From: Acidobacteriota bacterium | GTDB taxonomy: Bacteria; Acidobacteriota; Polarisedimenticolia; J045 | Length of the DNA: 45,229 nucleotides | Reading direction: 5' to 3' | Assembly (NCBI GenBank): GCA_046331425.1 | Contig: JAXLQU010000031.1 | Coordinates: 1 to 45,229, forward strand | In this document: positions 1 through 42,498 of the stretch, piece after piece | How the letters are laid out: the number at the start of each line of letters is the position of its first letter | How positions within the stretch are numbered: the first letter of the stretch is position 1 | Made by a program: the position numbers and the translations under genes | Notes under the pieces: generated by a model | What the model was told of the DNA's origin: nothing | Database searches by the model: none | Seen by the model: the letters and a program-made list of their open reading frames with translations, nothing else

Positions 1-848
1 TGACAACGACTGCCATTGAACTCGCATCGCAAGATGTCGTCGCGAAGGTCCTCGCAAAGGCCGGCGAGCTTCCAGTTCTTCCCCAGACCGCGATCAAAGT
101 AATGCACGAGCTGCGAACCCCAGGAATCACCGTCCCTCGTTTGATTCGCCTGGTAGAACTCGACCCGGCGATGACTGTGGCTGTGCTGCGGACTGCAAAC
201 TCCGCGTTCTACGGCGCACAAGCACAACTACGCGATCTCAAAGGGGCGATCAACAGTATCGGCATGAAGCAAACACGTAACTTGCTGTATGCGCTGGTAC
301 TCAAGGCTCAGGTTGCGGATGCCGAGGCCTACGGAAATCTCGGTGTCGAAGTATTCGAGCACTCCCTGGCGGTGGCGTTCGGTACCCGACTCGTAGCCGA
401 TACGGCGGGGGTCGACGTGGAAGATGCGTTCTTGTGCGGCATCCTGCACGACATCGGGAAGCTGGCGTTGGCGCAGGCGCTTCGTCTCGATAGCGAGGGC
501 CAGCGCCGTGAACTCGAAGCCCCCGACCTATCGCTGATCGCGGATCATCACGCCGAGACCGGCGCGCTGCTTGCGACGAAATGGGGCCTTCCGGCCGATG
601 TTGCGAATGTCATTCGCTACCACCACACGTTCGAGTCAGCCGATGCCCCGCAGCCCACGACAGCGTGCGTGGCGTTGGCCAACGCCCTGTGCAACGAGTT
701 GGGACTCGGTGGACCGGCCGTCGTACGCGGCACCTTTGAAACCGCCTCGGCCGCTTTTGTCTTGAAGTTGAATGCCGAGCAGCTCGGAGCCATCCGGACC
801 AAGTTGCCCGCAGTGGTTCAACCGGCGACGGCCGCTTTCCGCGGTTGA
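1..848 (+). CDS. HDOD domain protein (signal-transduction HD-related output domain), 5' partial
   Basis: ORF 102..848. The reading frame stays open back to base 3, with LPVLPQTAIKVM just upstream. That matches the start of HDOD domains. Motifs seen: DPAMTVAVLRTANSAFYG and HDIGKLAL. The stop is at 846-848. Confidence 0.55.
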   Translation, partial: TTTAIELASQDVVAKVLAKAGELPVLPQTAIKVMHELRTPGITVPRLIRLVELDPAMTVAVLRTANSAFYGAQAQLRDLKGAINSIGMKQTRNLLYALVLKAQVADAEAYGNLGVEVFEHSLAVAFGTRLVADTAGVDVEDAFLCGILHDIGKLALAQALRLDSEGQRRELEAPDLSLIADHHAETGALLATKWGLPADVANVIRYHHTFESADAPQPTTACVALANALCNELGLGGPAVVRGTFETASAAFVLKLNAEQLGAIRTKLPAVVQPATAAFRG

Positions 849-949
849 GCCGATCAGGTCCGAATTCAGTGCCCTGAGTCCGTGTGTCGCTGACCACATC
901 GAACGATCGAAGCCAGAATCTGATCCGTCGGCGGCGGCGATCGTCAGCT

Positions 950-3900
950 TCAAGGGCAGGCCGCTGGCGACGCTGCAATCAACGGATCGCGCGACGCGAC
1001 GAGTCCAGGGCTGCCATCGTCGTAGGTGCCTCGGCCGCCACAGTTTTGTGGGCGAACCAGATACCAACGTGCGTCGCCGGGAGGCGGGCCCTCGTCTTTG
1101 TCGTTGAAGGTGTTGGTTCCGAGATCGTTGCGCAGGCAGTCGCTGATCGAAGCGACGTAACTGCCGCCGGTCGAGATGAGCGTTGCCGTGGAGCCGCGCA
1201 GGAGATCGTAGTAGCTGGTAGCGCCACGATCTTCCCAATCCAAAATCACACCGCGTCCACTGCGCACCGCTTGCATTTGGGAAAGCCGCGCCGGAATCAC
1301 CGCGTTGTCGACGATCCCGTCACAGTCATCATCGGCGCCGTTGCATAGTTCGGGGATTGGCGTGCCCGGCGTGCACTGCTCCTGCAGTTGCGCATTGACG
1401 CACACGATCGAACCCAATCGGCCGCATTGCCCCACGCCGCACTGAGTCAATTGAGGCTCGAAGTCCTCATCGACTGGACCATCGCAATCGTCGTCCAAGC
1501 CGTTGCACAGCGCGTCGGTTGGCCCGTTCGGAGCGTAGGGTGTGCAGGTGGCGTTCTCGACACCGCCCGAGCACGAGGTGGTGATGGTTCGTGTGCAGAC
1601 GCCAAGCCCGCATGAGACCGGGTGCGCCGCGTACTCTTCGTCGGTCGGCCCATCGCAGTCGTCGTCGAGTCCGTTGCACAGCGTGTCGGTCGCCGAGCTT
1701 GGCGCGCCAGGCACACACGAATCGCCGGCGACCCCGCTAGCGCACGAGGTTTGCCCCGTAGAGGCACACACGCCGAGGCCGCAGTTGGTGGGAGTGACCG
1801 CAAACTCCTCATCGACAGGCCCGTCGCAATCATCGTCGATTGCATTGCAGAGGCTATCGGAACTCAAGGGCGTTCCGGGATTGCATGTGTTTTGAGGGGA
1901 GCCGTTGACGCAACCGAGGAAACCGGTTCGTGCGCAACCACCCACACCACAACTGGTGCTGCCGCCGCTGAAGTCCTCATCGACACTCCCGTCACAATCG
2001 TCGTCGACCGAATCGCAGGTGACATCGTTGAGCGCCAAAGGTGGGAGCGGCGCGCAGGTGTTGCCGGGCACACCACCGATGCAAGTCGTGGTTCCGCTCG
2101 ACAGGCACGGCCCGGTGCCGCAGCTTGTGGATTGCGCCACGAAGTTCTCGTCGACCGACCCGTCCTGATCGTTGTCGAAGCCGTCGCAGGAGTCGAACGG
2201 TTTGAGCAGCGCGTTGGTATCGTCGGCGTCGCCATCGCATTCGGTGAAACCGTCGCCATCGGCGTCGTTGCGTGCCGACGAGGCGAGGTACGGCAGATAC
2301 GCAACATTGGCGCTGACGCTCGTGCCGGTGCCGGGGCCGGCTCCCGAGGGCCCGGATGCCGCCCCCCACCAAGAGCGCGTCACGGGCAGCGAATCGGTGG
2401 TGTCGTTGCGCACACCTAGCGTGCTCGAAACGATATCGGTGAGTGTGATGTTCGCACCGCCCACATAGTCGGTTTGGATCCCGAGGTATGCACCGTCGAT
2501 GCTCGAGCACGACAGCGTGGTATCGACCGGTGCTCCGTTGTCGGTCGGTAGGTGCTGCAGCCGCAGCCCCGTACCGCTGCGATCGAACATCGTGAAGTTC
2601 GAGCGCTCGATCTTGGTGCGCGCACTGTCTGCCGCTTCACACGAATGACTGCCGGTGACGCGGACCGCCTCGTACACACCCTGATTGCCGATTTCGGGGT
2701 TGTCGTGAATCCACGTATCGTTGGAAGCCTCGATCCACAGATTGATCGCGGTCGTCTCGGGCCATTCGTTGCTGGGAACGCCGTGAATGGCGTTGTTGGC
2801 GATCTCGGTGTTTCTGGCGTACTTCAGCTTGATCGACCGCGTGATGTGATACGTGAACGAGTCGAAGATCTTGTTGCGATCGGCGTAGGCGCCGGCGCCG
2901 CCTTCACAACTGCGGAGTCCACCGTCGATGAGGATCCCCTCGCGCGAGCGATGCCCGCAGCGATCCTCGTTGTCGCCGTCTCGGATCATCCCGTCGAGGT
3001 AGATATTGCGAAGAGTATTGTCGTCGCAATCGCCGAGTAGGCGAATATCGGTGGTGCCGTTCTCGCGCAGGTCGATGGTGTCGAACAGAGAGTTCTTCAC
3101 GTTCTGCAGATCGAGCCCGATCTCTGTGTCTTGGTGGCCGCCGAAACAGGCCGGCGTGCCCATCCCGCCACCGTGGATCGTGAGGTACTTCACGTAGATG
3201 CCGCTGACGCCCACAATCTGCAGTCCCGGCTTGCGCGGCTCGTTGTATTGCGTGCCGTCGATCACGCTTTGATTGCAGTGATCGCACCACAGGTACTGGA
3301 TCCGCCCCGGCACACCCTCCAGATCGACCTGCCGATTCAAAACAACGCGCCCCTGAATCTCTCCCTTGCCGATCAGCACCAACCCGCCGGTGGGTGCCGC
3401 GTTGATCGCCGGTTGCAGCGTGTCGTAGCAGGCCGCGCCGGCAGCGCGCGACCAACCGGTCACCTTTGGTGCGCGGGCCAAGATCGGCTCGAGCGATCGC
3501 GGGATGAAGTTGGTCACGTCGCTCGGCCCTGTGGCGCTGTTACCGGTCCCACCGACACTCGGCGGCCCGCTCGCTGCACCCCACCAGTTGTGTTTAAGGT
3601 TGGCGGTTACGGAGTCTTGATTGACCGTCCCCTGCGCATTGCCAAGAAACAGATTCTCGTTGATCGTCGCGCCGGTTGCGGAGCCGGCGCGAATCAACAG
3701 CGCGGTGTTGGTTTGTTGCGCGAAACGGTTCTGCAGGACGTCAAGGTTGGTGACCGTGCCGCGAATTTCGAGGCCGCTCTCGTTGGAGGCCATCTGATTG
3801 CAAACGAACGATCCTCCGGTGACGCCGTCCAGCAATACGGAGAGGCCGTCGTTGGGAGCCGCAGAACCGTTGTTCCCGGTGAAGTAGTTTCCTTCCACGA

Positions 3901-4672
3901 ACAGGTCTCGCCCCTGCCGGATGTCGAGTGCCGCGCGACTGGTCGCCAGTGCCCCGACACCGTTGCCGCTGATCGTGTTGCCGGCAATCTCGAGCGTGTT
4001 GTTTGAGCCGGGCGCTTGCTTGAGGGCTGGACCATCGTTGTTGCGCATCGTGTTCTGGCGCAACTGGACGCGGCCCGATCCACCGAGCAACAAAACACCG
4101 GTGCCGCTGTCGGGTGTCGAATCGGAGTCGTTGAGTTCGATCGTGTTGCCGCTGATGCGATTCCAATCACCCACCGTTCCAATCGAATCGATCAACACGC
4201 CATAGCGGCAGTTGCGCATCGTCGAGTTGGTGATTTGAGCACTGCGTACTCCAGGGTGCGCCGGATCTCCGATGCGAACGCAGGCGCCACTGGCCGGCCC
4301 GTCGACCGTGAACCCATTGAGCTGGACCCCGGTCGCCAGCAAGCGGACGATGTCGCTCGTTCCCGTCCCGCGCAGCAATGTCAGCGAGTTGGTGCCCGAG
4401 CTGTCGATGAACACCCGTTTGTCGGCAATCACATCTTCGAAGTACGACCCTTCACCGACCGCGATCGTGTCGTTAGTACAGGCGACCGCGATGGCGTGAT
4501 TGATACTCTTGCACGGCGTGGCGGTTGAAAGACAGTTGTTCGCCGGATTCGTATCGCCGGTGATCGCTACGCGTCGTGTCCCACATTGGGCAATCGCGGG
4601 CGTTGAAACTCCGGCCAACACGATCAGCAGTGCAACGCAGATCAGCAACCAGCCTCGATACGATCGGTTCAT
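950..4672 (-). CDS. Secreted right-handed parallel beta-helix (pectate-lyase/NosD-like) repeat protein with six C-terminal Cys/Asp-rich Myxo_disulf/MopE-like metal-binding repeats
   Basis: 1278-aa ORF 950..4786. Internal Met39 (MNRSYRGWLLICVALLIVLAGVSTPAIA) gives a clean Sec signal peptide. The N-terminal two thirds have repeated NTISGNG / FTGNNG / IEGN beta-helix turns. The C-terminal third has 6 copies of CNGxDDDCDGxVDE(E/D)F...CGxGxC...G...C.PxxP. Confidence 0.75.
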   Translation of the reverse strand: MNRSYRGWLLICVALLIVLAGVSTPAIAQCGTRRVAITGDTNPANNCLSTATPCKSINHAIAVACTNDTIAVGEGSYFEDVIADKRVFIDSSGTNSLTLLRGTGTSDIVRLLATGVQLNGFTVDGPASGACVRIGDPAHPGVRSAQITNSTMRNCRYGVLIDSIGTVGDWNRISGNTIELNDSDSTPDSGTGVLLLGGSGRVQLRQNTMRNNDGPALKQAPGSNNTLEIAGNTISGNGVGALATSRAALDIRQGRDLFVEGNYFTGNNGSAAPNDGLSVLLDGVTGGSFVCNQMASNESGLEIRGTVTNLDVLQNRFAQQTNTALLIRAGSATGATINENLFLGNAQGTVNQDSVTANLKHNWWGAASGPPSVGGTGNSATGPSDVTNFIPRSLEPILARAPKVTGWSRAAGAACYDTLQPAINAAPTGGLVLIGKGEIQGRVVLNRQVDLEGVPGRIQYLWCDHCNQSVIDGTQYNEPRKPGLQIVGVSGIYVKYLTIHGGGMGTPACFGGHQDTEIGLDLQNVKNSLFDTIDLRENGTTDIRLLGDCDDNTLRNIYLDGMIRDGDNEDRCGHRSREGILIDGGLRSCEGGAGAYADRNKIFDSFTYHITRSIKLKYARNTEIANNAIHGVPSNEWPETTAINLWIEASNDTWIHDNPEIGNQGVYEAVRVTGSHSCEAADSARTKIERSNFTMFDRSGTGLRLQHLPTDNGAPVDTTLSCSSIDGAYLGIQTDYVGGANITLTDIVSSTLGVRNDTTDSLPVTRSWWGAASGPSGAGPGTGTSVSANVAYLPYLASSARNDADGDGFTECDGDADDTNALLKPFDSCDGFDNDQDGSVDENFVAQSTSCGTGPCLSSGTTTCIGGVPGNTCAPLPPLALNDVTCDSVDDDCDGSVDEDFSGGSTSCGVGGCARTGFLGCVNGSPQNTCNPGTPLSSDSLCNAIDDDCDGPVDEEFAVTPTNCGLGVCASTGQTSCASGVAGDSCVPGAPSSATDTLCNGLDDDCDGPTDEEYAAHPVSCGLGVCTRTITTSCSGGVENATCTPYAPNGPTDALCNGLDDDCDGPVDEDFEPQLTQCGVGQCGRLGSIVCVNAQLQEQCTPGTPIPELCNGADDDCDGIVDNAVIPARLSQMQAVRSGRGVILDWEDRGATSYYDLLRGSTATLISTGGSYVASISDCLRNDLGTNTFNDKDEGPPPGDARWYLVRPQNCGGRGTYDDGSPGLVASRDPLIAASPAACP
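1250..2300 (-). repeat. Tandem in-frame coding repeats (about 50-aa Cys-rich modules, 6 copies) inside the beta-helix protein gene
   Basis: The peptide unit LCNGLDDDCDGPVDE[ED]F...CG.G.C...G...C is repeated 6 times at protein residues ~860-1180. That maps to roughly 1250-2300 on the plus strand. Boundaries are approximate. Confidence 0.55.
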
Positions 4673-4920
4673 CGGCCGTCCCACCCTTCCGCGTCGCCAG
4701 GCAATTCCAATGGCGTCGATTCGTTTGCTATGTGCAGGGTCTTTACAAACCCGACTCTGCCGGGGCACCCCGTACCTAGCAACCACGGAATCTACGCCGA
4801 TCCACAGCAGCCGGGCGGCAACAATGTTCCTATTCGGGGAACCCCTGTCGGCAGGCCAGAGCGGTCGGTGGGGGCGGGCCCAGGCCGCGCGGACGATAGC
4901 GCACCGAACTTGCCGCGGTC

Positions 4921-5310
4921 CTACCTCTTGGTGAGGTGCTTCCCGAGGAACTCGCGCATCCTCCGCGCGATGGTGGTCCCTTCCTCTTCCAGTGCGAAGT
5001 GCCCCGTGTCGAGCAGGTAGAACACCAGCGTCTCGAGGTCACGCTGGTACGGTTCCGCGCCGGCAGCCGGGAAGATCTTGTCGTTCTTACCCCACACGAT
5101 CAGCGTCGGTGGTTGATGTTTGCGGAAGTATTCCTGCCAACTCGGGTACAAAGGTGGATTGCTCCGGTAGCTGATGAACGGATCGAGTTGAATATCTTTG
5201 TTCCAGTCACGGTCGAGCAGGTAATGGTCCTCCATGTAGCCATCGGGGCTGATCGACTCTGCGTCCTTCACACCATGCGTGTATTGCCAGTTTGTCGCTT
5301 CCAAGGTCAA
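4921..5310 (-). pseudogene. alpha/beta-hydrolase fold protein, C-terminal fragment only (N-terminal nucleophile-elbow half missing)
   Basis: The 129-aa ORF matches only the C-terminal third of alpha/beta hydrolases ([12 protein letters not shown]...DTGHFALEE with the catalytic His). No GxSxG region is present. Upstream in frame is the antisense of the next gene. Confidence 0.5.
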
Positions 5311-6100
5311 CTGCGCTGCCGTGCCGCGCGAGTTGTTCGAGAGCGAGTTCTTCGGTCACGTCAAGGGCTCGTTCACCAGCGCCTTGCGCACTCGTGTCGG
5401 CCGTTTCGAGTTGGCGCACGGCGGGATGTTGTTGCTCGACGAGGTCGGCGAGATTCCGCAGGAGTTGCAGGCTAAGTTGCTTCGCGTGCTGCAAGAGGGT
5501 GAGTTCGAACGCGTGGGCGAAGAGCGCACGCGCAAGGTCGATGTCCGCGTGCTGGCGGCAACCCATCGCGATCTACGCCGCGACGCCGACGCCGGCCGTT
5601 TTCGAGCCGATCTTTACTACCGCCTGAGCGCGTTTCCAATCGAGGTTCCTCCGCTGCGCGAACGTCCCGAAGATGTACCGATTCTGGCCGAAGCGATTCT
5701 TGCCGCAGCGGCGCGTCGACTGGGTCGCAAGGCGCCGCGATTGACGCGTGCGGTGATGCAGCGATTGCAGGGTGACGCGTGGCCGGGGAATGTGCGCGAA
5801 CTTCAGCACGTGATCGAGCGTGCAGTGTTGACCTCGACAGGAGCGGCACTGGAAGTCGAAACGCTCGACGCGACACCCGCGCGAACGAGCGGTCAGCCGG
5901 TGACATCGTCCAAACGTCCAGTGCGCACCGCCGCCGAGTTACGTCAGATGGAAATCGACAACGTGAGGGCTGCGCTCTCGGCCGCAGATGGAAAGGTCTA
6001 CGGCAAGGGGGGTGCGGCCGAGTTGCTGGGGATGCGGCCGACCACACTCGCATCGCGCATGAAGGCGTTGGGATTGGACACGCGCAGCCTGCGGCGCTGA
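5279..6100 (+). pseudogene. sigma54-dependent transcriptional activator (NtrC family), N-terminally truncated (no receiver domain, no Walker A)
   Basis: The ORF starts inside the AAA+ sigma54 domain at ...[23 protein letters not shown] (the NCAA / ESELFGH region). It retains the GAFTGA-like loop (GSFTSA), LLLDEVGE (Walker B), [26 protein letters not shown] and a C-terminal Fis-type HTH. GESGTGKE and the receiver are absent. It overlaps the truncated hydrolase by 32 bp. Confidence 0.6.
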
Positions 6101-6358
6101 GTCGGGCCGAGCTTCCGTGCGCGCACCGCGCCCCGGCGCTGACTAGATCGGAAATCGGGGAGCGCGCGGCGGAAGCGTTCGCGCGTACTCGTCGATGCGG
6201 GCGTGCCATTCGCTCGTCCTGATCACGTCGCGAGTCGATTCACCTAGCAGCGGCAAGATCGGCTCGGCCCGGAGTGCACTTGTCCATCGATGGTCCGGCT
6301 AGGCCCAGGTCTCGACCGCTGCCATAATCACGAGCCCACGACGGAGGTGCGACTCAGC

Positions 6359-7816
6359 ATGAGCAATGACCAGCGCGAGCGCCCAATCGCGAAGACACGC
6401 GAAGAATACGAAGCGATTCTGCAGAACGCACACCGTTACTACTGCGCGTTTCCACCTTTCCAGGACTGGCCTCCACTCTCGTCGAGGCAGGTCGACGTCT
6501 GGAACGACGCGGTCGCGAGCGCCGAAGCGGCGAAAGAAAACGCGCCACAAGCAGCTCACCTGCTTGTCGCCGAGGCACTATTCAGAATCGCTTCCGCTCA
6601 TTCAGACGCCATCGAAGCGCTCTCCGACAACGACAGGGGGCTTACTCTGAGCGCCGTACTCGAGGAAGTGGCATTGCAGGCAATCGCGTCGGAGAAGGGC
6701 GAGCCCGTTGGAGACCCAATCGACGCTCAGCGCAACGCGTTCGAACTGACGCTCGACATGGCCACTCGCGCAACCGGGATTAGCGAGGTGCTTGTGCGAC
6801 GACTGCATAAAGAGGTCTGCGGGCCTCAGCGCGGATATGTGGTACACACGGCGGCCGGACCTCGAGAACAGGAGTTCCCCAAGGGCCGGTACAAGACCTC
6901 ACCTAACTACCCGTGGAAGCAAAACGGTGAAGTGGTCGTTTACGCGCCACCCGACAAGACCGCGCAGGAGATGGAGCGATTGATCTCGGAGCTCCGTAGC
7001 ACCGATTTCTGCAGTGCGCATCCAATCGCCCAGGCAGCGTACGCGCACTACGCGACCGTCGCGGTGCACCCGTTTGCTGATGGAAACGGGAGGATCGCCA
7101 GATTGCTCGCGTCGATCTTCCTACTTAGGGCGACCCCCACTCCGTTTCTGATTTGGAGCGATCAGAAGAGTTTGTACCTTGACTCACTTGCAGCCGCCGA
7201 CAGTGGTGATGTAAGCGCATTCCAGAGGTTCGTCTTCGATTGCACTGTCAACGCGCTGCATGAGTTCTCGTTCCGACTTCGCGCGGCATCCCGGGGCGAA
7301 TCGATGCAGACGGCAACGGGGCGAGTCAACAGCCTCTTGACGGGTGTCGCCGGACTATCTCACGCAGACACTCAGGCGATCGGGGAGCGTGTCTTCGAGT
7401 TCGCCATTGCGGCGCTCGAAGCGACTCGAGCCAAAGCGAAGTTCATCGCGGGCGTGAGCTGGGAAAGCAATGACCTAACGGGTGTTAGTAGACACCTCGA
7501 CGGCTACAGGACCCTAAACCCCCGAACCAACGATGCATGGGAGCTGCGAATCCGGTGCACACAACCCGTCTCCGTCTGTCAGACAACGACTCTGCTTGCG
7601 TACGTAAGAAGTGGCGTAGGAAGTCCCTTTGACTTTGTCGTCAGCCCGGCGCGTGCTGACACTCTCGAACTCCGCGCCCGCATCACCGAGGTCTATCCAG
7701 CGATCACAGAGGCATTCGAGAGTCGAACCCGGATTTGGGCTGAACACACGATCTCGAGAATCGTGAGTGACTTTGGCAGCGAACTAGAGGCTGAAATGAA
7801 GCGGGCTGGATACTGA
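6359..7816 (+). CDS. Fic/DOC family protein (Fido domain, HPFx[DE]GNGR motif) with long N- and C-terminal extensions
   Basis: The motif HPFADGNGRIARLLASIFLL is an exact Fic core. Start chosen at Met24 (MSNDQRERP), which is preceded by GGAGGTG about 9 nt upstream. The ORF track begins at 6290. Confidence 0.8.
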   Translation: MSNDQRERPIAKTREEYEAILQNAHRYYCAFPPFQDWPPLSSRQVDVWNDAVASAEAAKENAPQAAHLLVAEALFRIASAHSDAIEALSDNDRGLTLSAVLEEVALQAIASEKGEPVGDPIDAQRNAFELTLDMATRATGISEVLVRRLHKEVCGPQRGYVVHTAAGPREQEFPKGRYKTSPNYPWKQNGEVVVYAPPDKTAQEMERLISELRSTDFCSAHPIAQAAYAHYATVAVHPFADGNGRIARLLASIFLLRATPTPFLIWSDQKSLYLDSLAAADSGDVSAFQRFVFDCTVNALHEFSFRLRAASRGESMQTATGRVNSLLTGVAGLSHADTQAIGERVFEFAIAALEATRAKAKFIAGVSWESNDLTGVSRHLDGYRTLNPRTNDAWELRIRCTQPVSVCQTTTLLAYVRSGVGSPFDFVVSPARADTLELRARITEVYPAITEAFESRTRIWAEHTISRIVSDFGSELEAEMKRAGY

Positions 7817-18129: not shown

Positions 18130-18981
18130 ATGAAACAGCACACCATTACCGGCGCAGGAATCGGTTTGCGAAAAGAGCACCACGACACGGTGCTCGCAGA
18201 AAAACCACCGGTCGCCTGGTTCGAAGTGATCTCCGAGAACTTCATGGTCGACGGCGGCAAGCCGATCCAGGTTCTAGACCGTGTGCGACGCGACTACCCG
18301 GTGGTGATGCACGGCGTGTCGTTGTCGATCGGCTCCGATGATCCACTCGACAAAGACTACCTGCGCAAACTCGGGCAGCTCGAAAAGTGGCTGCAACCGT
18401 CACTGGTTTCCGATCACTTGTGCTGGACTTCAGCCGGCGGCCACAACAGCCACGACTTGCTTCCGCTGCCGCGCACCGAAGCGACGCTGCACCGTGTGGT
18501 CGAGAAGATCGGCCAAGTGCAAGACCTGCTCGGCAGGCAATTGCTGCTCGAGAACATCTCCAGTTACCTCGAGTTTCAGCAGTCGACCTTGGGCGAAGCC
18601 GAATTCTTGGCCGAGGTCGCTGTGCGTGCCGACTGTTTGATACTGCTGGACGTCAACAATCTCTACGTCAACACCCGCAATCATGGCTTGGATCCGTTCA
18701 CCTACATGAACTGGCTTCCGGCGGAACGGGTTGCGCAGTTCCACCTGGCGGGCCATCAGGATCTCGGCGATGTCGTGATCGACACTCACGATGGCCCAGT
18801 CTGCACCGATGTGTGGGACCTGTATCGGCGCGCCGTACGGCGCTTCGGCGCAGCACCGACACTGATCGAATGGGACGCCAACATTCCACCGCTTCAGACC
18901 GTGCTGGCTGAAGCACACCGCGCCGATGCCGCCGCTCGCGAAGCGCTGATGGAGCTCAACCATGTGCAGCGCATTGCCTAA
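18130..18981 (+). CDS. bufB: DUF692 family (MbnB/BufB-like, TIM-barrel di-iron) RiPP-modifying enzyme
   Basis: Hallmark DUF692 blocks: GIGLR..H, WFEVISENFM, YPVVMHGVSLSIGS, VSDHLCWT, HDLLPLP.TE and LLLENISSYL. Confidence 0.85.
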   Translation: MKQHTITGAGIGLRKEHHDTVLAEKPPVAWFEVISENFMVDGGKPIQVLDRVRRDYPVVMHGVSLSIGSDDPLDKDYLRKLGQLEKWLQPSLVSDHLCWTSAGGHNSHDLLPLPRTEATLHRVVEKIGQVQDLLGRQLLLENISSYLEFQQSTLGEAEFLAEVAVRADCLILLDVNNLYVNTRNHGLDPFTYMNWLPAERVAQFHLAGHQDLGDVVIDTHDGPVCTDVWDLYRRAVRRFGAAPTLIEWDANIPPLQTVLAEAHRADAAAREALMELNHVQRIA

Positions 18982-19786
18982 GCCGGTCAGCGATCTGGCT
19001 GTGGCCCAACGGAAGTTCTTGCGCGACTTGTCCGGCCTCGAATCGCGGGACGCCGCCTCACGCGCAGAACAGTTCTGTGCGCCACCGGCCGGCGATGTCG
19101 AGCGACGCTGGCACGTCTACACCTCGGGTTACTTCGTGCGGTTACGCGACGTGCTGGCGCAGGACTACCGCGCCATCGCGCGGATTGCTGGTGACGATGC
19201 CTTCAGCGGTTTGGTCGGGCGTTATCTGATGGCTTGCCCACCGCGTCGCTACGACTTGGCGATGGCCGGTGAGCGCTTCCCCAGCTTTGTCGGCAGCGAC
19301 GCACTGAGCTCGAGCCTGCCCTTCATCCCCGACCTCGCGCAGCTCGAGTGCGCTGTTTCCGACTGCTTCATCGCCGCCGAGCCTCAGCCGCTGACCTGGA
19401 AGGGGCTGCGAGAGATGCCGTCAAGCCAAGCGGCCGAGCGCAGCATTGCGCTTCAGCCATCGGCACGCGTGCTTCGCTCGATCTGGCCGCTACGCGACTT
19501 GTGGCAGACCGCCTTCACACCCGAAGACGATGAGATCGATATCGACTTGAGTGAGAAACCACGTTGCTTTCTCGTGCATCGCAACGAGGGTGAGATCTTC
19601 GTGAGAGAGATCGACGACGAGCTCGCCACATTGCTTCAAGCCGCGGAACAGCAGGGCAACACACTCACAGGACTCGCCGCCTCGCTATCGCTCGGTGACG
19701 AGCCCGAGGATGTACGCAGCTTCTTGATGTTGATGCAGCGCGCTCTGGCGCTATCGCTTTTCACTCTCAACCCCGTCGCCACTTGA
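18962..19786 (+). CDS. bufC: DUF2063 family protein (MbnC/BufC-like partner of DUF692)
   Basis: The WHVYTSGYFVRLRDVLAQDY...GDDAF..LVGRYL...P...YDL...GERFPSFV pattern is typical of DUF2063. The start overlaps the end of bufB by 20 nt. Confidence 0.7.
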   Translation: MCSALPKPVSDLAVAQRKFLRDLSGLESRDAASRAEQFCAPPAGDVERRWHVYTSGYFVRLRDVLAQDYRAIARIAGDDAFSGLVGRYLMACPPRRYDLAMAGERFPSFVGSDALSSSLPFIPDLAQLECAVSDCFIAAEPQPLTWKGLREMPSSQAAERSIALQPSARVLRSIWPLRDLWQTAFTPEDDEIDIDLSEKPRCFLVHRNEGEIFVREIDDELATLLQAAEQQGNTLTGLAASLSLGDEPEDVRSFLMLMQRALALSLFTLNPVAT

Positions 19787-19815
19787 ATGGACGACACACA
19801 CTCTCTGGAGGCTCG

Positions 19816-20136
19816 ATGAACGGAAAGTCGAAGTTGTTTTTGGCAGCATTGGCTGGTGCACTCGCTCTCCCCTCGCTCGCGCTGGCCGAGGACGCCAAGC
19901 CGGGTACCGACAAAGATGCCGGCAAGGTGCCTTGCTGGGGCATCAACAAGTGCAAGGGCGTTGGCGACTGCGGTGCCGATGGCTGCCGTCACAGCGGTTG
20001 TCACGGTTCCAACGGCTGCAACGGCAGCGGCTTCATTCGCTTGGAAGCGGAAACCTGTCTGAAGATCGTGGGTGGCCGCCTGACCAAGGCTGCCGAGCCG
20101 GCCAAGGTCGAAAAGAAGGGCAAGGACAAGAAGTAA
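19816..20136 (+). CDS. bufA: DUF2282-type (bufferin-like) RiPP precursor peptide with Sec signal peptide and 7 Cys
   Basis: MNGKSKLFLAALAGALALPSLALA|EDAKPG..., then a core VPCWGINKCKGVGDCGADGCRHSGCHGSNGCNGSGFIRLEAETCLKIVGGRL that matches the DUF2282 pattern (C[YW]G...NxC...HSxC...TC.KI.GG). Lys-rich tail. GGAGG 7 nt upstream of the ATG. The ORF track begins at TTG 19783. Confidence 0.75.
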   Translation: MNGKSKLFLAALAGALALPSLALAEDAKPGTDKDAGKVPCWGINKCKGVGDCGADGCRHSGCHGSNGCNGSGFIRLEAETCLKIVGGRLTKAAEPAKVEKKGKDKK

Positions 20137-33970: not shown

Positions 33971-36900
33971 CTATGGACAGGCTCCACGCGAACTCTGAAG
34001 TCGCGGCCCCTGACTCGCTTGCCCGACAGGCCCTTCACCCGAGCCGTTGGAGGCGCGCACCAGCCACCAGCTCATCGAGCCAGCAGCCGGCTGCTCGGCG
34101 ATGGAAGTCGCCGATGTGGCAGTCGTCGTCAGCCGCGTGCAGGAATCGGCCTCCGCGGTGAGGAGCTTCGGGAGATCGGCACCCGTGCCGCGGTAAAGCG
34201 AATAGGACTGCGCGCCGGTCGCTGCGGTCCAGGAAAGCGCTGTCTTTGTGTCCCAGCGCAAACGCAGCACCTCGCCTGGGCTGGAATTCTGATCACACGT
34301 TCTGTAGCGACAAGACTCGGGGAATGGATGCGAGACCTTGACGTTGTCGACCTGCCACCAGCGATCGTTTGCGCCTCGTGTGTACCGGAACTGGATCACG
34401 ACGTCGCTCGCTCCTGCTGCTTGGGCCGTGATATCGACCACGCGATGATCCGGGTTCGCGCTGGAGGCACCGTTGTAACGAAACACATTGACGAAATCGC
34501 CGCCGGTCAGTGTCGAGCGAACATCGACGTCGCCGCGCTCGTCACCGCCACCTGGACCGAAGTTGAAAAAACTGTCGAACTCGACGGTCACCGAGCTTGC
34601 GGCCGAGAGGTCGAGCGTCGGCGTGATCAAGCGCTCTTCCTGCGACGCACCGGCTCCGGCCGCTTGGCTATCGACAATCGCGAACGGCTCCGTGATTGGG
34701 GGGTTCGCGGCCCGGCCGCCGGGATTACTGGTGGTCCATGTGCTGGCCGCGCCACCACCGCTTCCCTTGTCCTCGACTGTCCAGGTCGTCGGGATTCCAG
34801 CAGCGAAGTCTTCGAAAAGATCGGTCGTGCGTCCGGCCGGCACCTTCTCACCGGTGGGCCCGATAGACAGCGCGTCGGTGAAGACACCTTGATGTGTGTG
34901 AATCTCGACGTTGAACTGAACCGTCGAACCGCAGGCAGCACCCAGCGGAAGGTGAGCGATGAAATGCGGGGCGCTCGAATCGGCGACTCCGTTGCGGGGA
35001 ATCTCAGGATAAAGCCGAGTGTCTTCGATCATCGTGACGCCAGGCGTCACGGGGATCAGCGTGGCGTAGACGCCGGTGAGCGTGTCGGTACCGGTGTTCT
35101 TCAGCGCGACACGGATCGCCGCGGTCTCGCCCTCGTCCCAATGGCCGTCAGCATTGCCGGCACCACCAGCAGCGCAGGAGTCGGAGAGTCGTTGGAATGT
35201 GTCCTTGGCGCAACCCGGTCCGCACGCCTGGGTCAGTGTCAGTTGCAACTCGAAGCCGATGATCGTTCCGGAATCGACTCCGAAATCATCGATCACTTCC
35301 AACTGCCACGTCCCTTGGGCGCTCTTGCCGGCAAACGCAGCGAGCGGCGATTCGGGCTTGAACGATCCAGCATACGGTGGCACTCCAGCGCTGATGGGCG
35401 TGATCGCTGCATCGTCGAACAGCGTATTGTCGAAGTTGTCTCCTGTGTCGCCGCGCCGGCTGGAGAGGTTGACGAACGAACCATCGGGATGTCGCAACCG
35501 CACCGTAACGTTGCCATCGGCGGTATGGGCGAGATTGAAGCGGACTTTGACGTCGACGACCTTGCGCGCATCGTCGAGCACAGCGCGCGCTACATTCGCT
35601 ACAGTGGACTGCGCCGGCATCACGATCGGCGGATCGGGTGAGAGCCTGGCGACAGAGAAGTCGGCACCGGTCGTGAACTGGAAGTAGTTTCCAGCGTTGT
35701 TCGCCACCGCAAGCTGCCCGTAGCGATCGGCGGAGCGGACGGAGTAGTACTGTCTAGTGCATTCCGGCAAGTCGGTCAGTTGGGTCAGGTGCGCGGTCAC
35801 GAGCGACGAATTCAACGCGCTGTTCGTCGCCGGTGGAATCGATGCACCGTAGGTTGCTTGGCTGCTGCTTGTTTCATCGGTGTTCCATTTGAGGTTTGCG
35901 GTTCTTCCCGTGATCGAGTCGGCGCCGACGCCGCTGATTACCGGCGCGGCGCAGTCGATGCTTGCGCTGCGCTGCACCGCTGCGGCGGAGGTTCCACACG
36001 GAGAGGCATCGAGATATTCGACGGTGACGTTGGACAGATCAGTCGTGCTGATTCGGCCGTCGGGTGTCGGCGGGGCCGATGTAGTCGAGATCGAGCCGAG
36101 ATAGGTGCCCGAGCCGGCAGGTGACTCCACCAGAATCACCACCTCAGGTACCGTCTCGACCGGCGAGGTCACGCGAACCGGTTGAGTACCCGAACCGATC
36201 AGATCGGAGTCCGTCACGGTGATTTGAATCGTGTCGGAACAGCTATAGAGAGTTCGGTCCAAGCTGAGCGCTCCAAAGCACGCCTGACCGGTGCAATCGA
36301 TGGTGGCGGTGCGTGTCTTGGTGACATTGGCGGTTCCGCACGAGGAGGCATCGACATACGTCATCGTGACGATCGAGCCGTGCGCCACGTTCAGAACTCC
36401 GTTGTGAATTGGCGGCGCCGACGAGGTAGCGATGGTTCCGGAGAATCGCCCCGAGCCAGCCGGAGATTCAACCAGTGTCACGATTTCGGGCGTGGTCTCG
36501 ACGCTCGAGCTGACAGAGACGACTTGCGTCCCCGCACCGCGCAGATCGGCGTCGTCAAGACGCAGTGTGATCGTATCGGAGCAGTTGTAGACACTGCGAT
36601 CCGATGTGAATGCGCCCGAGCAAGGCAGCGCCGAAGCACTGACGCAACTGCTCCCCGGCCCCATGCACGCGCCGCTCACGCCGATCGGCTGGACGACGTA
36701 ATGGTACGGGCGCTCGTTGGCCACATCGCTATCTGTGAAGCTGGTACCGGCGACCGTGCCGATCACTGCCTTACCCAAATCGCAACCGGCGAACCCTTCG
36801 GCGCGCATCACGCGGTAACTCGTTGCACCGGGAACAGCCGACCATGTCAGGCCGATCTGATTGTTGTTGCTACTCGATGCTGTTACGACCGGTGCCGTGG

Positions 36901-39034
36901 TCGGGCCACCCACACAACCGCTGTTCAAGGGAGTGGGTGTCGGGCAGGCGATTCCGTGTCGATCGAATGCTGCGAAGATCGCGGTCATGTGCGGCGTGCC
37001 GTTGTTGAGATTGCCGTCGTCGTCGTCGGCGGCGAGCCAGAGCGGGTAGGCGTTGGTCGCACCGCAACCGTCGGAGGTGCCGCCGCAGGTGCAGGCATGC
37101 CATGAACCGATGCTTCCGCTCCCTTGGAAGAAGATCTTCGAGCCGAGGTTGAACGCATCCTCGCGAGTCATGTTGAACGGCGCGGCTTGCAGGTCGCGCG
37201 CAACAAGATCCCAGGCCGCTTGCCGACTCGGCGCGGCGGCGCAGTGCACTTGCCGGCCACACGGCCCTGGGCCGGTCGAACAATGCGTGCAAGAAAATCC
37301 GAGCGCGGTGGCCGGAGTGTTGGCCACATGCCCGGCCCAGTCAGCATCACGCACGCCGGAGCAATTGGTATCGCAGTAGGACCCAACCTGCGACTCGTTC
37401 TGGTTGAAGCCGGTACCGTCCGCGGTCCGGCCGCAACCCTTGTCGGTAGTCCAGAAAAATCCGTACGCCACACAAGAAGCCCGCAGGCGATAGATCGACG
37501 CGATGTCAGCGTAGGCTTCGCTCGAATTGCTGAGCGCTCCTCCGCTGTCGTTATCGTCGAGTGCGTGCCCCCATTCGTGGTCGAAGATCGCCGCAATTTC
37601 CCCCGTATTGCGACACCCGCCGCCAGAGCGGTAGAAGTTGATCGTACCGTCGGCAGTCGAGTAGAACGCATTACAGGTGTTGAGAATATTCATGTTGGAA
37701 GTGATCTGTCGGCTGAGCCACAGGTTGTTGGGGAGCCAGCCTCGAGCGACCTCGATCAGTTTGTTGAGCTCATAGAAACCGGATCGAGACGCAGCGGTAT
37801 TGCCTGCCGAGGATCGCCCGGAAACACAGTCGTGTTGCCCGTTCGACCCCGAAAGGTCAAGCGCACCTACCGCGCTCGACTCGTTGACGGGTCCACAGTT
37901 GTCGAACATCCGAACGTACTTGCCGTTGAGCGTTGTCGTGACCGTTCCGCCGTTGTAGTCGAACACGCCTCCCGAGTTGGTGAAATCATTCGGCGCAGGG
38001 AGTCCGGTATTGGCGAACGGCATCGGCTCTCCTGACTGCATCAACCCGCAGGTCGCGTTGGTGGGGCAGATCTCGGTGCTTGTCAGCGGGTAGACGCCGC
38101 CCTTGAGTTCCTGCCCGTCGTAGTGATTGGTGTCTTGAAACGAGAGCACGACGCCGCTGTGGGCGTCGACCAGGACCTGCCAGTTCTCCACGCCAGAGTC
38201 GCGCCGGAATCCGAACGCCCATACCAGGTAGTGGCCGTATCCTTTGCCGATCGGCCCGTCGAACGGCTTCCCCGCTTCGAACTGTTGAGGCGCAAACGGC
38301 ACGATCTCGAGCGTAGGCTCCTGCCAGAGTTGATCTGCAGGCGAGCGCCCCCCGACAAATGTGAAGCCGATGTCGACGGCTTGATCGGCCGAGATCGATG
38401 GCAATGTCGGGACGTTCACCTGCCCCCAGGTTTCAGTGCCCAGCAGAACGAGATTGCCGTGGCTGACCGTTGCCGAAAGCTGCGCATATCGAACAGGTAC
38501 GCCGTTCTTTTGTTGTGGAAGTCGGATCTGCCAAAGGTCGGCAGAGATCTCTGACGCTGTCGCCTCACCGAGTTGAGCGACGTCCAGGCCCAGTGCCTCA
38601 TGGTGTGTCGTCACGAAGCGCGTGACGAGTTCACCGACCAGCGAGGCGTCTACTTTCTTCACGGCATGACCAAGACTGAGCTGCAATCCATCCAGCGTGA
38701 TCGTATTTCCCACGCCGTGACCGGGAATCAGCGGGATCGCGGTCATGATGTTGCTCACAGAACCGGACCGTGGATCGAAATATGTCTGCGCTTGTGGACC
38801 GCTCACCGCCATCAGGCGGTCCCATGCGGCCTGCCGAGTCGCCAAGTGAGATTGCATCGCGCTCGCGGGCCGATGACTCGAGTCAAGGGTTAACTCGGGT
38901 CGGAAAAACTGCCGCGAGGCGAGTGGCGTCTTTGTTGCGGGCTCGGGTTCGAGTGCTAGCGCCGGGTTTGGTGCGAGGTCCGCGCAAATGAGGACAGCAA
39001 ACACTGCGATCGACCGGAGATGAAACTGTCTCAT
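33971..39034 (-). CDS. Secreted multidomain zinc metalloprotease (HEWGH; PepSY/propeptide-like N-region, FN3, tandem duplicated ~105-aa domain, proprotein-convertase P-domain-like, MAM-like domain, C-terminal FN3-like 'ACP' module)
   Basis: Signal peptide MRQFHLRSIAVFAVLICADLAPNPALA at Met61 of the track ORF. Zinc site FDHEWGHALDDND. P-domain-like region ...GTWQLEVIDDFGVDSGTIIGFELQLT. Two near-identical domains are both ~...TITLRLDDADLRGAGTQVVSVSS.../...TIQITVTDSDLIGSGTQPVRVTS.... Confidence 0.8.
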   Translation of the reverse strand: MRQFHLRSIAVFAVLICADLAPNPALALEPEPATKTPLASRQFFRPELTLDSSHRPASAMQSHLATRQAAWDRLMAVSGPQAQTYFDPRSGSVSNIMTAIPLIPGHGVGNTITLDGLQLSLGHAVKKVDASLVGELVTRFVTTHHEALGLDVAQLGEATASEISADLWQIRLPQQKNGVPVRYAQLSATVSHGNLVLLGTETWGQVNVPTLPSISADQAVDIGFTFVGGRSPADQLWQEPTLEIVPFAPQQFEAGKPFDGPIGKGYGHYLVWAFGFRRDSGVENWQVLVDAHSGVVLSFQDTNHYDGQELKGGVYPLTSTEICPTNATCGLMQSGEPMPFANTGLPAPNDFTNSGGVFDYNGGTVTTTLNGKYVRMFDNCGPVNESSAVGALDLSGSNGQHDCVSGRSSAGNTAASRSGFYELNKLIEVARGWLPNNLWLSRQITSNMNILNTCNAFYSTADGTINFYRSGGGCRNTGEIAAIFDHEWGHALDDNDSGGALSNSSEAYADIASIYRLRASCVAYGFFWTTDKGCGRTADGTGFNQNESQVGSYCDTNCSGVRDADWAGHVANTPATALGFSCTHCSTGPGPCGRQVHCAAAPSRQAAWDLVARDLQAAPFNMTREDAFNLGSKIFFQGSGSIGSWHACTCGGTSDGCGATNAYPLWLAADDDDGNLNNGTPHMTAIFAAFDRHGIACPTPTPLNSGCVGGPTTAPVVTASSSNNNQIGLTWSAVPGATSYRVMRAEGFAGCDLGKAVIGTVAGTSFTDSDVANERPYHYVVQPIGVSGACMGPGSSCVSASALPCSGAFTSDRSVYNCSDTITLRLDDADLRGAGTQVVSVSSSVETTPEIVTLVESPAGSGRFSGTIATSSAPPIHNGVLNVAHGSIVTMTYVDASSCGTANVTKTRTATIDCTGQACFGALSLDRTLYSCSDTIQITVTDSDLIGSGTQPVRVTSPVETVPEVVILVESPAGSGTYLGSISTTSAPPTPDGRISTTDLSNVTVEYLDASPCGTSAAAVQRSASIDCAAPVISGVGADSITGRTANLKWNTDETSSSQATYGASIPPATNSALNSSLVTAHLTQLTDLPECTRQYYSVRSADRYGQLAVANNAGNYFQFTTGADFSVARLSPDPPIVMPAQSTVANVARAVLDDARKVVDVKVRFNLAHTADGNVTVRLRHPDGSFVNLSSRRGDTGDNFDNTLFDDAAITPISAGVPPYAGSFKPESPLAAFAGKSAQGTWQLEVIDDFGVDSGTIIGFELQLTLTQACGPGCAKDTFQRLSDSCAAGGAGNADGHWDEGETAAIRVALKNTGTDTLTGVYATLIPVTPGVTMIEDTRLYPEIPRNGVADSSAPHFIAHLPLGAACGSTVQFNVEIHTHQGVFTDALSIGPTGEKVPAGRTTDLFEDFAAGIPTTWTVEDKGSGGGAASTWTTSNPGGRAANPPITEPFAIVDSQAAGAGASQEERLITPTLDLSAASSVTVEFDSFFNFGPGGGDERGDVDVRSTLTGGDFVNVFRYNGASSANPDHRVVDITAQAAGASDVVIQFRYTRGANDRWWQVDNVKVSHPFPESCRYRTCDQNSSPGEVLRLRWDTKTALSWTAATGAQSYSLYRGTGADLPKLLTAEADSCTRLTTTATSATSIAEQPAAGSMSWWLVRASNGSGEGPVGQASQGPRLQSSRGACP

Positions 39035-41882: not shown

Positions 41883-42498
41883 CGAGTTTGCAGAAAGCAC
41901 GATTGCGGTTACGGGCACTTGCCCGCCGCAATCGCGAGGCGATCAAACGCTGCTGCTGCCGGTCCTGACCCACAAGCAGTGATCGGTCTTGCCAGGCATC
42001 CGAATACCTGGCCGGCCGGCGACTCAGCGGCCATGCAGGCGCCGATCAACGGACCGTTGCGATCGATCGAGCCGACTTCGCAAACAGCGCCGCCCACGAA
42101 CTCGGCGAGATTTGCGCTGAGCGCGGTGTCGTCGCGAAGGTTGACGGCGATCGCGGCATCACAAGCTCTCGTGCCGGCGCCAACGAAAGGTTGAAAGAGG
42201 ATTCTCCAGCCTCGTGTCACAGAACGCTCTGCTCTCGTTTTCGTTGACGCACAAACGCACTTGATCACTGGCATCCCTGACGGCCGGCGGCACAGTCGCT
42301 GTTCGAGACAGTCCAAAAGCATGCGCGGAGCCGCACCTCCCGACGGTTGCTTTGCCCGGATCGTGATCGTTTTTCAGATTTCTCGTTGCGTTGATCGATC
42401 TTCGAGAGTGCGATCCGATTGGCTCGTCTTCGCGTAGACTTCCCGCGCCGTGATTGCCGGCCGTGGTGGGCAACCGGCGCGCGGAAGGGTGAATCTCG

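Follow-up and report, generated by a model that had tools for sequence, protein, structure and literature searches.

Two giant secreted proteins, A and B, are encoded on the minus strand of a 45,229-nucleotide stretch of DNA from an Acidobacteriota bacterium (contig JAXLQU010000031.1 of assembly GCA_046331425.1; this whole stretch is referred to below as the window), and their tails belong to a single conserved family of domains, each about 105 residues long. The copy on the beta-helix protein A (type A of the module) occupies positions 953-1303 of the minus strand, comprises 117 amino acids and ends ...ASPAACP, with the stop codon at 950-952. The copy on protein B (type B), which carries a zinc-protease region, occupies positions 33974-34309 of the minus strand, comprises 112 amino acids and ends ...SSRGACP, with the stop codon at 33971-33973.

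An earlier reading of the letters of the window (the original prediction) had described these tails as a collinear module shared by two otherwise unrelated proteins, with the second copy placed near 33971-34300 on the minus strand, and alignment bears this out. Over their last ~115 residues A and B are 30% identical (BLASTP E=6e-8), and the Smith-Waterman score of 90 compares with 28.8 +/- 5.2 for 2000 shuffled controls (z=11.7), none of which reached 90. The module is also the sole significant similarity between the two proteins in whole-protein BLASTP (E=4e-5). The motifs named at the time (W...GA.SY.L.RG, a Cys, W[YW]LVR, G.G and a terminal A-C-P) are all present, on invariant or nearly invariant columns of the family. 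A hidden Markov model (HMM) built from the A+B pair scores the window copies at 1e-64 and 1e-55, and a six-frame HMM scan of the window found no third copy. An HMM of type A gives 1.3e-45 on the type-A copy of the window and also detects type-B modules, at 1e-9 to 1e-11; the A and B tails are therefore homologous.

The original prediction had further proposed to look for other proteins ending in this module, and it does recur widely, with the terminal Cys-Pro kept in other genomes. A word-indexed search with the A+B pair returned just two metagenomic relatives, ending ...GICP and ...GPCP; the family came into view when 1.84 billion cluster representatives were searched exhaustively with a profile, which matched 4545 proteins at E<1e-3, 783 of them at E<1e-10. 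The counts of terminal and internal copies and of Cys residues given below refer to the best 150 of these 4545 representatives. They fall into two classes, namely giant proteins with many generic fibronectin-III (FN3) repeats that match positions ~24-100 of the profile, and proteins with a single hit to the whole profile. In 82 of the 150 the module lies within three residues of the last residue of the protein; 73 of these terminal copies end in CP and three in CPP, the remainder ending in CS, CH, CL, CG or TP. When stop-terminated open reading frames (ORFs) of 75 loci were inspected, 63 out of 1531 ended in CP, and 60 of those 63 were module hits.

Conservation, fold and chain end

The family consensus reads ...PxEVxxLxW...ATxYxxYRGxxADLPxLLTxxxDSCxR...PxxGxFxWYLVRAxNxxGEGPAGxATxGPRxxxSSGxCP, the tail being rich in Gly and Pro (GEGPAGxATxGPRxx[ND]SSGxCP). 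W27, G41, C57, G93, C111 and P112 (protein B numbering) are invariant in a 34-sequence alignment, 12 further columns are conserved at 90% or more, and both window copies carry all of the invariant residues. Mean pairwise identity among 21 type-B modules, taken from different proteins and genomes, is 52%, which is far above the requirement of the FN3 fold alone.

Three types of module can be told apart by their signatures. Type B, represented by protein B, reads ...GEGPxGxATxGPRxxxSSGxCP. Type A, represented by protein A, reads ...WYLVRPxNCxGxGxYD...SRDxxIxASPxACP and is often preceded by MopE repeats, as in P0087 and P0172. The more divergent type C (...GDLWFVVVGxD...EGSWG...SGQCGxTTRDNSGTCP) resides on the closest homologues of the P-domain/choice-of-anchor-J region of protein B and is barely picked up by the family HMM. 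Its copies (P0183-P0192; positions 4087-5559 of locus L012) have four Cys residues (WDVxxC ... GxxCxLG ... SGQCGxTTRDNSGTCP) and keep the Cys-Pro end. Further subfamily variants end ...TCP.

AlphaFold2 (AF2) models predict for the module a seven-stranded beta-sandwich of FN3 topology. The model of the B module has a mean predicted local distance difference test score (pLDDT) of 86.8, with five strands of at least three residues, short bridges and a helix at residues 43-50; that of the A module scores 75.3 overall, with 83-90 in the core and low confidence (about 51-57) in the tail. The structural hits include the FN3 domains of chitinase A1 and CtXyl5A. Beyond the sandwich itself, the module has a short helical insertion (ADLPxLL), the motif DSCxR and the Gly/Pro-rich tail. 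Compared with generic FN3 domains (Pfam fn3; 3MPC of C. thermocellum and 1K85, ChiA1 of B. circulans), the fold is the same and core motifs are common to both (Trp in strand B, xYxVYR in strand C and YxYxVxAxN..G in strand F), so that the family profile matches hundreds of generic repeats at positions ~24-100. The module differs from them in that the helix replaces strand C', that the Cys of DSCxR and a Gly/Pro tail of 20 residues with a Cys-Pro end have been added, and that it is nearly always the last domain and not an internal spacer.

Neither window module is matched by Pfam fn3 (PF00041) at E<=10, and a PDB sequence search gave weak generic FN3 matches only (3MPC at E=0.0027 with the family profile). 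Searches of the isolated modules against NCBIfam (E<=1) and Pfam (E<=10) gave no match, save a sub-threshold GH85_C at E=0.13. Taking together the FN3 fold and the lack of a library match, the module is a separate FN3 subfamily that no library models. The original prediction had suspected that it might be uncharacterised, and the lack of any matching Pfam or NCBIfam model agrees with this; the literature searched held no description of the domain family. The same source had allowed for a generic FN3 domain without terminal conservation: the FN3 fold stands, but the subfamily is distinct and its terminus is strongly conserved across genomes. What is new with respect to Pfam, NCBIfam and PDB is thus the subfamily, its invariant Cys pair, the Cys-Pro terminus, the promiscuous C-terminal use and the apparent restriction to Acidobacteriota, the fold itself being known.

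The invariant pair corresponds to Cys57 and Cys111 of the protein B module. When full-length copies were aligned to the family profile, both Cys were present in 98 out of 99; in the exception, P0133, the Cys of DSC is lost and another has been gained four residues upstream. The hit set also contains 700 generic FN3 repeats in which the first Cys is missing and which show no alignment to the tail, and 61 repeats with a Cys at the first position that represent a different, intraloop-Cys type of FN3 found in three giant proteins. Mature A and mature B have 52 and 40 Cys, respectively, both even numbers. From the co-occurrence of the two residues and these even totals we infer that a disulfide joins the penultimate Cys to the one with which the fifth strand begins, a bond that would pin the tail to the sandwich. 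The type A module has an odd number of Cys, at 56, 88 and 116.

The residue after the last Cys behaves differently at chain ends and inside chains. It is Pro in 76 of the 82 terminal copies versus 4 of the 17 internal ones (Fisher p=8e-9), and Pro is therefore favoured specifically at the chain end; it is selected for as a terminus and not for the fold. A C-terminal Pro makes a poor carboxypeptidase substrate, which is the simplest reason that we can offer for this bias. The end was also considered as a PDZ-type ligand, for which a C-terminal Pro would be atypical. N-glycosylation sequons in the tail (NAT, NSS) were considered and dropped, the Asn positions not being conserved.

Carriers and distribution

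Protein A (ORF at 950-4672, minus strand; 1240 amino acids from ATG) is identical to NCBI MFN7967349.1, named "right-handed parallel beta-helix repeat-containing protein" according to an exact look-up, and is encoded identically by three assemblies. It consists of a Sec-type signal peptide (MNRSYRGWLLICVALLIVLAGVSTPAIA; 4586-4672, minus strand), a right-handed, NosD-like beta-helix, five or six MopE-like Cys repeats and the module. Its family matches are Pfam Beta_helix (6.9e-13), Cu-binding_MopE (1.5e-11) and the NCBIfam NosD family (2.8e-15, below the cut-off). The MopE-like repeats (..CNGxDDDCDGxxDE..; Pfam PF11617, in 4 stretches; 1304-2389, minus strand) lie directly upstream of the module.

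Protein B (ORF at 33971-39034, minus strand) has 1687 amino acids from ATG; the NCBI version, MFN7967374.1, has 1628 and is named "proprotein convertase P-domain-containing protein" (exact look-up). A Sec-type signal peptide (MRQFHLRSIAVFAVLICADLAPNPALA; 38954-39034, minus strand) is followed by a zinc-protease region with an HEWGH motif (37565-37579, minus strand), FN3, S-layer-like Ig repeats (NCBIfam Kustd1514 S-layer-like, 4e-15, below the cut-off), a proprotein-convertase P-domain (35240-35554, minus strand; Pfam PF01483 P_proprotein, 3.8e-12), a choice-of-anchor J domain (34334-34819, minus strand; NCBIfam NF038128, 1.7e-10, 41.3 bits versus a cut-off of 30) and the module, which begins ~10 residues beyond the end of the choice-of-anchor J domain. 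The signal peptides of A and B were identified by eye from the sequence. In most P-domain carriers, many of them of type B, a short CxxC or CxxxxC motif (CQSCTP, CTDCTP, CHSCAV) stands ~10 residues ahead of the module, as does ESCRYRTC in protein B (window ~34295-34321); this motif probably forms a small disulfide loop in the linker.

A Pfam census of 47 full-length carriers found P_proprotein in 18, fn3 in 8, InhA-like MAM in 6, FG-GAP in 5 and Trypsin_2 in 4, together with Kelch, RCC1, SBBP and BNR propellers, Beta_helix, M28, Calx-beta and NosD. The P-domain is the commonest partner (18/47, 38%) and lies directly upstream of the module. Most carriers that begin at Met have a signal-peptide-like N-terminus.

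The great majority of full-length copies (83%) are found at the extreme C-terminus, and 17 out of 99 are internal or N-terminal. In at least seven proteins (P0097, P0100, P0101, P0105, P0125, P0128 and P0143) the module directly follows the signal peptide and is itself followed by a stretch resembling the lamin-tail domain (LTD; LVINEVDYDQPG...) or by Cys-rich repeats. Judging from such N-terminal and internal copies, the module is an autonomous extracellular domain for which a position at the chain end is not required, and these copies argue against an obligatory C-terminal export signal.

In three loci (L003 6336-8798, L004 6336-8804 and L007 6336-8801) a P-domain gene begins 9 nt past the module gene. 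The C-terminal FN3 of the encoded P-domain proteins has neither the Cys nor the CP end (...LLMYLVTGVSPRGESAWGHYGR before the stop), and may represent the unstapled ancestral state of the module.

The taxonomic distribution was scanned in one genome per GTDB species by a pattern-limited procedure that used a 5-sequence alignment and was biased toward close type-B modules. It returned 23 loci, all in metagenome-assembled genomes (MAGs) of Acidobacteriota, from Thermoanaerobaculia (including T. aquaticum), Aminicenantes, Terriglobia, Pyrinomonadaceae and unclassified members. One type-C carrier is labelled Candidatus Polarisedimenticolaceae. So far the family thus appears to be found only in Acidobacteriota. 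Several copies occur per genome (MAG MFD02979.bin.2.107 gave four loci), and tandem or nearby module genes are frequent; L002 has three module-bearing ORFs, while L008 and L021 have two apiece, and some of these ORFs are split by frameshifts. In L008, L017 and L021, all from MFD02979.bin.2.107, the module genes are split between reading frames, which inflates or splits the ORF counts; we suspect assembly frameshift errors.

Possible roles of the module

A surface-anchoring or export-tag role of the module is plausible. The reading that we favour, though only tentatively, is that of a shared extracellular targeting or retention domain that is retained on its carriers and has a disulfide-stapled, Pro-capped, protease-resistant end; we prefer it because of the N-terminal occurrences and the high conservation. 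According to this proposal, the module would fold in the periplasm after Sec export, the penultimate Cys would bond with its partner at the beginning of the fifth strand, so pinning the tail onto the sandwich, and the final Pro would leave carboxypeptidases and tail-specific proteases with a free end that they cleave poorly. The stapled module would then act as a common, non-catalytic address or retention unit, whose binding to a shared ligand of the cell envelope or matrix would keep unrelated exoproteins at the cell surface. It would not be a cleaved signal of the sortase type.

Such a role might be comparable to that of SLH domains, dockerins and carbohydrate-binding modules (CBMs), which are likewise promiscuous, mostly terminal, present in many copies per genome and found at either end of diverse exoproteins. 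This is the functional analogy that we favour, although their folds and motifs differ from those of the module and they have a cohesin, cell-wall polymer or glycan as partner. The PPC (PF04151) and P-domains are also beta-sandwiches appended to secreted peptidases, but the module is not limited to peptidases, being carried by beta-helix, propeller, LTD and Cys-rich proteins as well; PPC itself was not found in whole-protein or module scans of A and B.

Several points weigh against a retained targeting domain of this kind. Gly, Pro, Cys and aromatic residues make up many of the conserved positions of the module, and these could be purely structural. The C-terminal bias and the cargo, which resembles that of type IX secretion system (T9SS) and PEP-CTERM proteins, would suit an export signal equally well. 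The proposed disulfide is derived from Cys co-occurrence and not from a measured distance, and the pairing in type A is uncertain, since one of its three Cys may have no partner or a partner beyond the module; the tail of type A is also the part modelled at low pLDDT. Finally, the restriction to Acidobacteriota derives from the pattern-limited scan.

A rather unlikely explanation, in our estimation, is that the module serves as a signal for export across, or attachment to, the outer membrane, i.e. that some undescribed translocon or attachment enzyme of Acidobacteriota recognises the folded, Cys-Pro-ended sandwich while it is in the periplasm. It would then be a functional analogue of the T9SS C-terminal domain (CTD), and might afterwards be removed or covalently linked. 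The T9SS CTD is a C-terminal beta-sandwich that folds before crossing the outer membrane (PMC4804311), and the resemblance extends to its size (~80-100 residues), its position at the end of many unrelated Sec-exported proteins per genome and its cargo (proteases, adhesin-like repeats, beta-helices). The position of most full-length copies at the extreme C-terminus, the many copies per genome and a cargo typical of CTD and PEP-CTERM proteins (proteases, propellers, beta-helix, Calx-beta) all speak for such a signal.

The placement of the module in protein B points in the same direction, and it equally suits the favoured reading, as this is where one would look for a surface anchor. "Choice-of-anchor" domains belong to surface proteins with alternative C-terminal anchors (10.1101/2023.03.06.531300). 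The module comes after such a domain, and the close homologues of the B passenger end in a type-B module or in the more divergent type-C one with its ...TCP tail, those of Thermoflexus ending instead in a short hydrophobic stretch and a basic tail; the module can therefore be said to sit in an "anchor slot". Two of these homologues of the choice-of-anchor-J region (P0195 and P0196 of Thermoflexus hugenholtzii, each annotated as 'InlB B-repeat-containing protein') end ...FCEDPSLGIENYLLYLPLVLRMR. Judged from these residues, their hydrophobic-plus-basic end occupies the position of the Acidobacteriota module and resembles a small sorting signal.

The original prediction had seen in the shared tail the hallmark of a secretion or attachment tag, like the T9SS CTD or PEP-CTERM. 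This claim fared less well than the description of the module itself. No recurrent secretion or processing gene lies beside the module in 74 loci or around A and B, and the copies that are internal or directly follow a signal peptide do not fit an obligatory terminal tag, the CTD being always the last domain of its cargo. The modules gave no match to TIGR04183, TIGR04131 or Por_Secre_tail (NCBIfam E<=1, Pfam E<=10), nor to the PEP-CTERM models. The top structural neighbours listed are classical FN3 domains, with no T9SS CTD among them. Further differences are that the CTD belongs to Bacteroidota and the module to Acidobacteriota, that PorU/PorV-like genes were not seen near module genes, and that the module has an invariant Cys pair, a Cys-Pro end and a much higher sequence conservation; a mean identity of 52% and an invariant last dipeptide would be unusual for a part that is discarded. 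The module was thus not counted among the T9SS CTDs, given the failed model match and its less strict position, though it still resembles them in size, placement and cargo. More specifically, Acidobacteriota could have an undescribed pathway for moving folded, disulfide-bonded exoproteins across or onto the outer membrane, with the module as its cargo signal and the penultimate Cys or the Pro carboxylate being recognised or attached; we consider this distinctly unlikely.

Small sorting signals of the tripartite kind were examined as a candidate and rejected. In these a short motif is followed by a hydrophobic transmembrane helix and then by basic residues at the C-terminus (10.1101/2023.06.07.544157). 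Those with an invariant Cys (MYXO-CTERM, CGP-CTERM, JDVT-CTERM and Synerg-CTERM; Haft 2023), which measure ~30-40 residues, have an Arg-rich basic cluster and are cut by myxosortases of the CPBP/Rce1 type, share with the module an invariant near-terminal Cys and an occurrence on many surface or secreted proteins. The module is, in contrast, a folded domain of 105 residues that has no hydrophobic segment or basic tail and a single residue past the Cys. The original prediction was right that neither window tail has a hydrophobic helix and that neither is a MYXO-CTERM or sortase-type anchor: the transmembrane helix and the basic tail are both absent. A, B and 73 of the 82 terminal copies stop at Cys-Pro without any such tail, which disagrees with LPXTG, PEP-CTERM, MYXO-CTERM, CGP-CTERM and GlyGly-CTERM alike, and no tripartite-signal model of NCBIfam/TIGRFAM matched the modules.

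We likewise give a low probability to a purely structural role, in which the module would be an FN3 variant capping or spacing large exoproteins and guarding their C-terminus from proteolysis, without binding any particular partner or serving to target them. Bacterial exoenzymes often contain FN3 modules as spacers, and the hits to chitinase A1 and CtXyl5A are of this kind; Gly, Pro, Cys, Trp and Tyr dominate the conserved positions, and the terminal-Pro statistic is consistent with protection from exopeptidases. Moreover, the FN3 ends of the neighbouring P-domain proteins in L003, L004 and L007, which are free of Cys and of CP, indicate that the position tolerates a plain FN3. However, the identity seen across unrelated carriers far exceeds what generic FN3 divergence would leave, the conserved polar motifs DSCxR, ExP and ATxGPR are not explained by the fold, and the Cys-Pro end is kept in three divergent subfamilies. 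A cap also makes little sense in two-domain proteins with LTD or Cys-rich repeats.

It is very unlikely that the penultimate Cys is instead a free, reactive thiol (at least in the three-Cys type A) that links the protein covalently to an envelope protein, lipid or polymer, including by an intermolecular disulfide. The odd number of Cys in the type A module, the invariant, always penultimate position of this residue and the existence of sorting signals with an invariant Cys (10.1101/2023.06.07.544157) would suit this view. Yet the type B pair co-occurs in all full-length copies but one, where a compensating shift has taken place, the Cys totals of mature A and B are even, and the known Cys signals all need a transmembrane helix and a basic tail, which the module lacks.

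A chance or compositional resemblance of two generic FN3 domains, for which only the 30% identity of A and B and the Gly/Ala/Ser-richness of both could be adduced, is refuted by the score against shuffles, by hundreds of independent members sharing 18 invariant or nearly invariant columns and the same end, and by the 700 generic FN3 repeats of the hit set that have no such tail.

Neighbouring genes and significance

The surroundings of module genes were compared by all-against-all BLAST of ORFs, in 24 and then in 75 loci (694 kb), and no recurrent neighbour of secretion or processing type was found among them. The recurrent clusters consisted of antisense shadow ORFs, paralogous passenger proteins, sigma-54 activators and Ser/Thr kinases with TPR or PD40 domains. 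The regions flanking gene A on an 80-kb contig contain no secretion-related genes, and the genes that surround A and B in the window and on that contig are ordinary housekeeping or regulatory ones; PorK/L/M/N, Sov and PorU/V genes are absent from the window and from the flanks of 74 loci.

Ser/Thr kinases fused to TPR or PD40 adjoin module genes in 7 of 74 loci (L030, L038, L041, L042, L071, L072 and L073), and in L042 the kinase gene (776-3538) lies directly upstream of the module gene (3542-7048). This probably reflects the background abundance of kinases in Acidobacteriota. Genes of sigma-54-dependent activators are present in the window at 5240-6097 and 42493-44718 (both plus strand), and relatives occur near module genes in L001, L044, L047 and L066; since the family is common, this co-occurrence is probably coincidental. 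Elsewhere in the window, positions 18130-20136 (plus strand) encode an enzyme of the MbnB/TglH/ChrH family (DUF692, Pfam E=3e-109) and a DUF2063 protein, followed by a 117-amino-acid ORF (19783-20136, plus strand) with a signal peptide and a Cys-rich core (VPCWGINKCKGVGDCGADGCRHSGCHGSNGCNGSGF). From its gene content this region looks like a cluster for a ribosomally synthesized and post-translationally modified peptide (RiPP) of the bufferin/DUF2282 type, with the precursor gene downstream of those of the modifying enzymes.

Acidobacteriota are among the most abundant bacteria of soil, and to our knowledge the way in which their arsenal of exoenzymes is displayed or released is little understood. 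The domain described here can be recognised from sequence alone and flags an entire group of their secreted proteases and repeat proteins. Annotation would benefit at once from a model of it, as the carriers are now called "hypothetical" or are named for an upstream domain, and the domain offers a concrete means of searching for the partner or machinery that handles them. If the module only provides a disulfide-stapled, Pro-capped end, it would be an example of the protection of exoproteins against C-terminal trimming. If it belongs to an undescribed export or attachment pathway, it would be a functional counterpart of the T9SS CTD or of PEP-CTERM/exosortase, and of high interest as such. If it is an address tag, it would define the surface proteome and exoproteome of the phylum.

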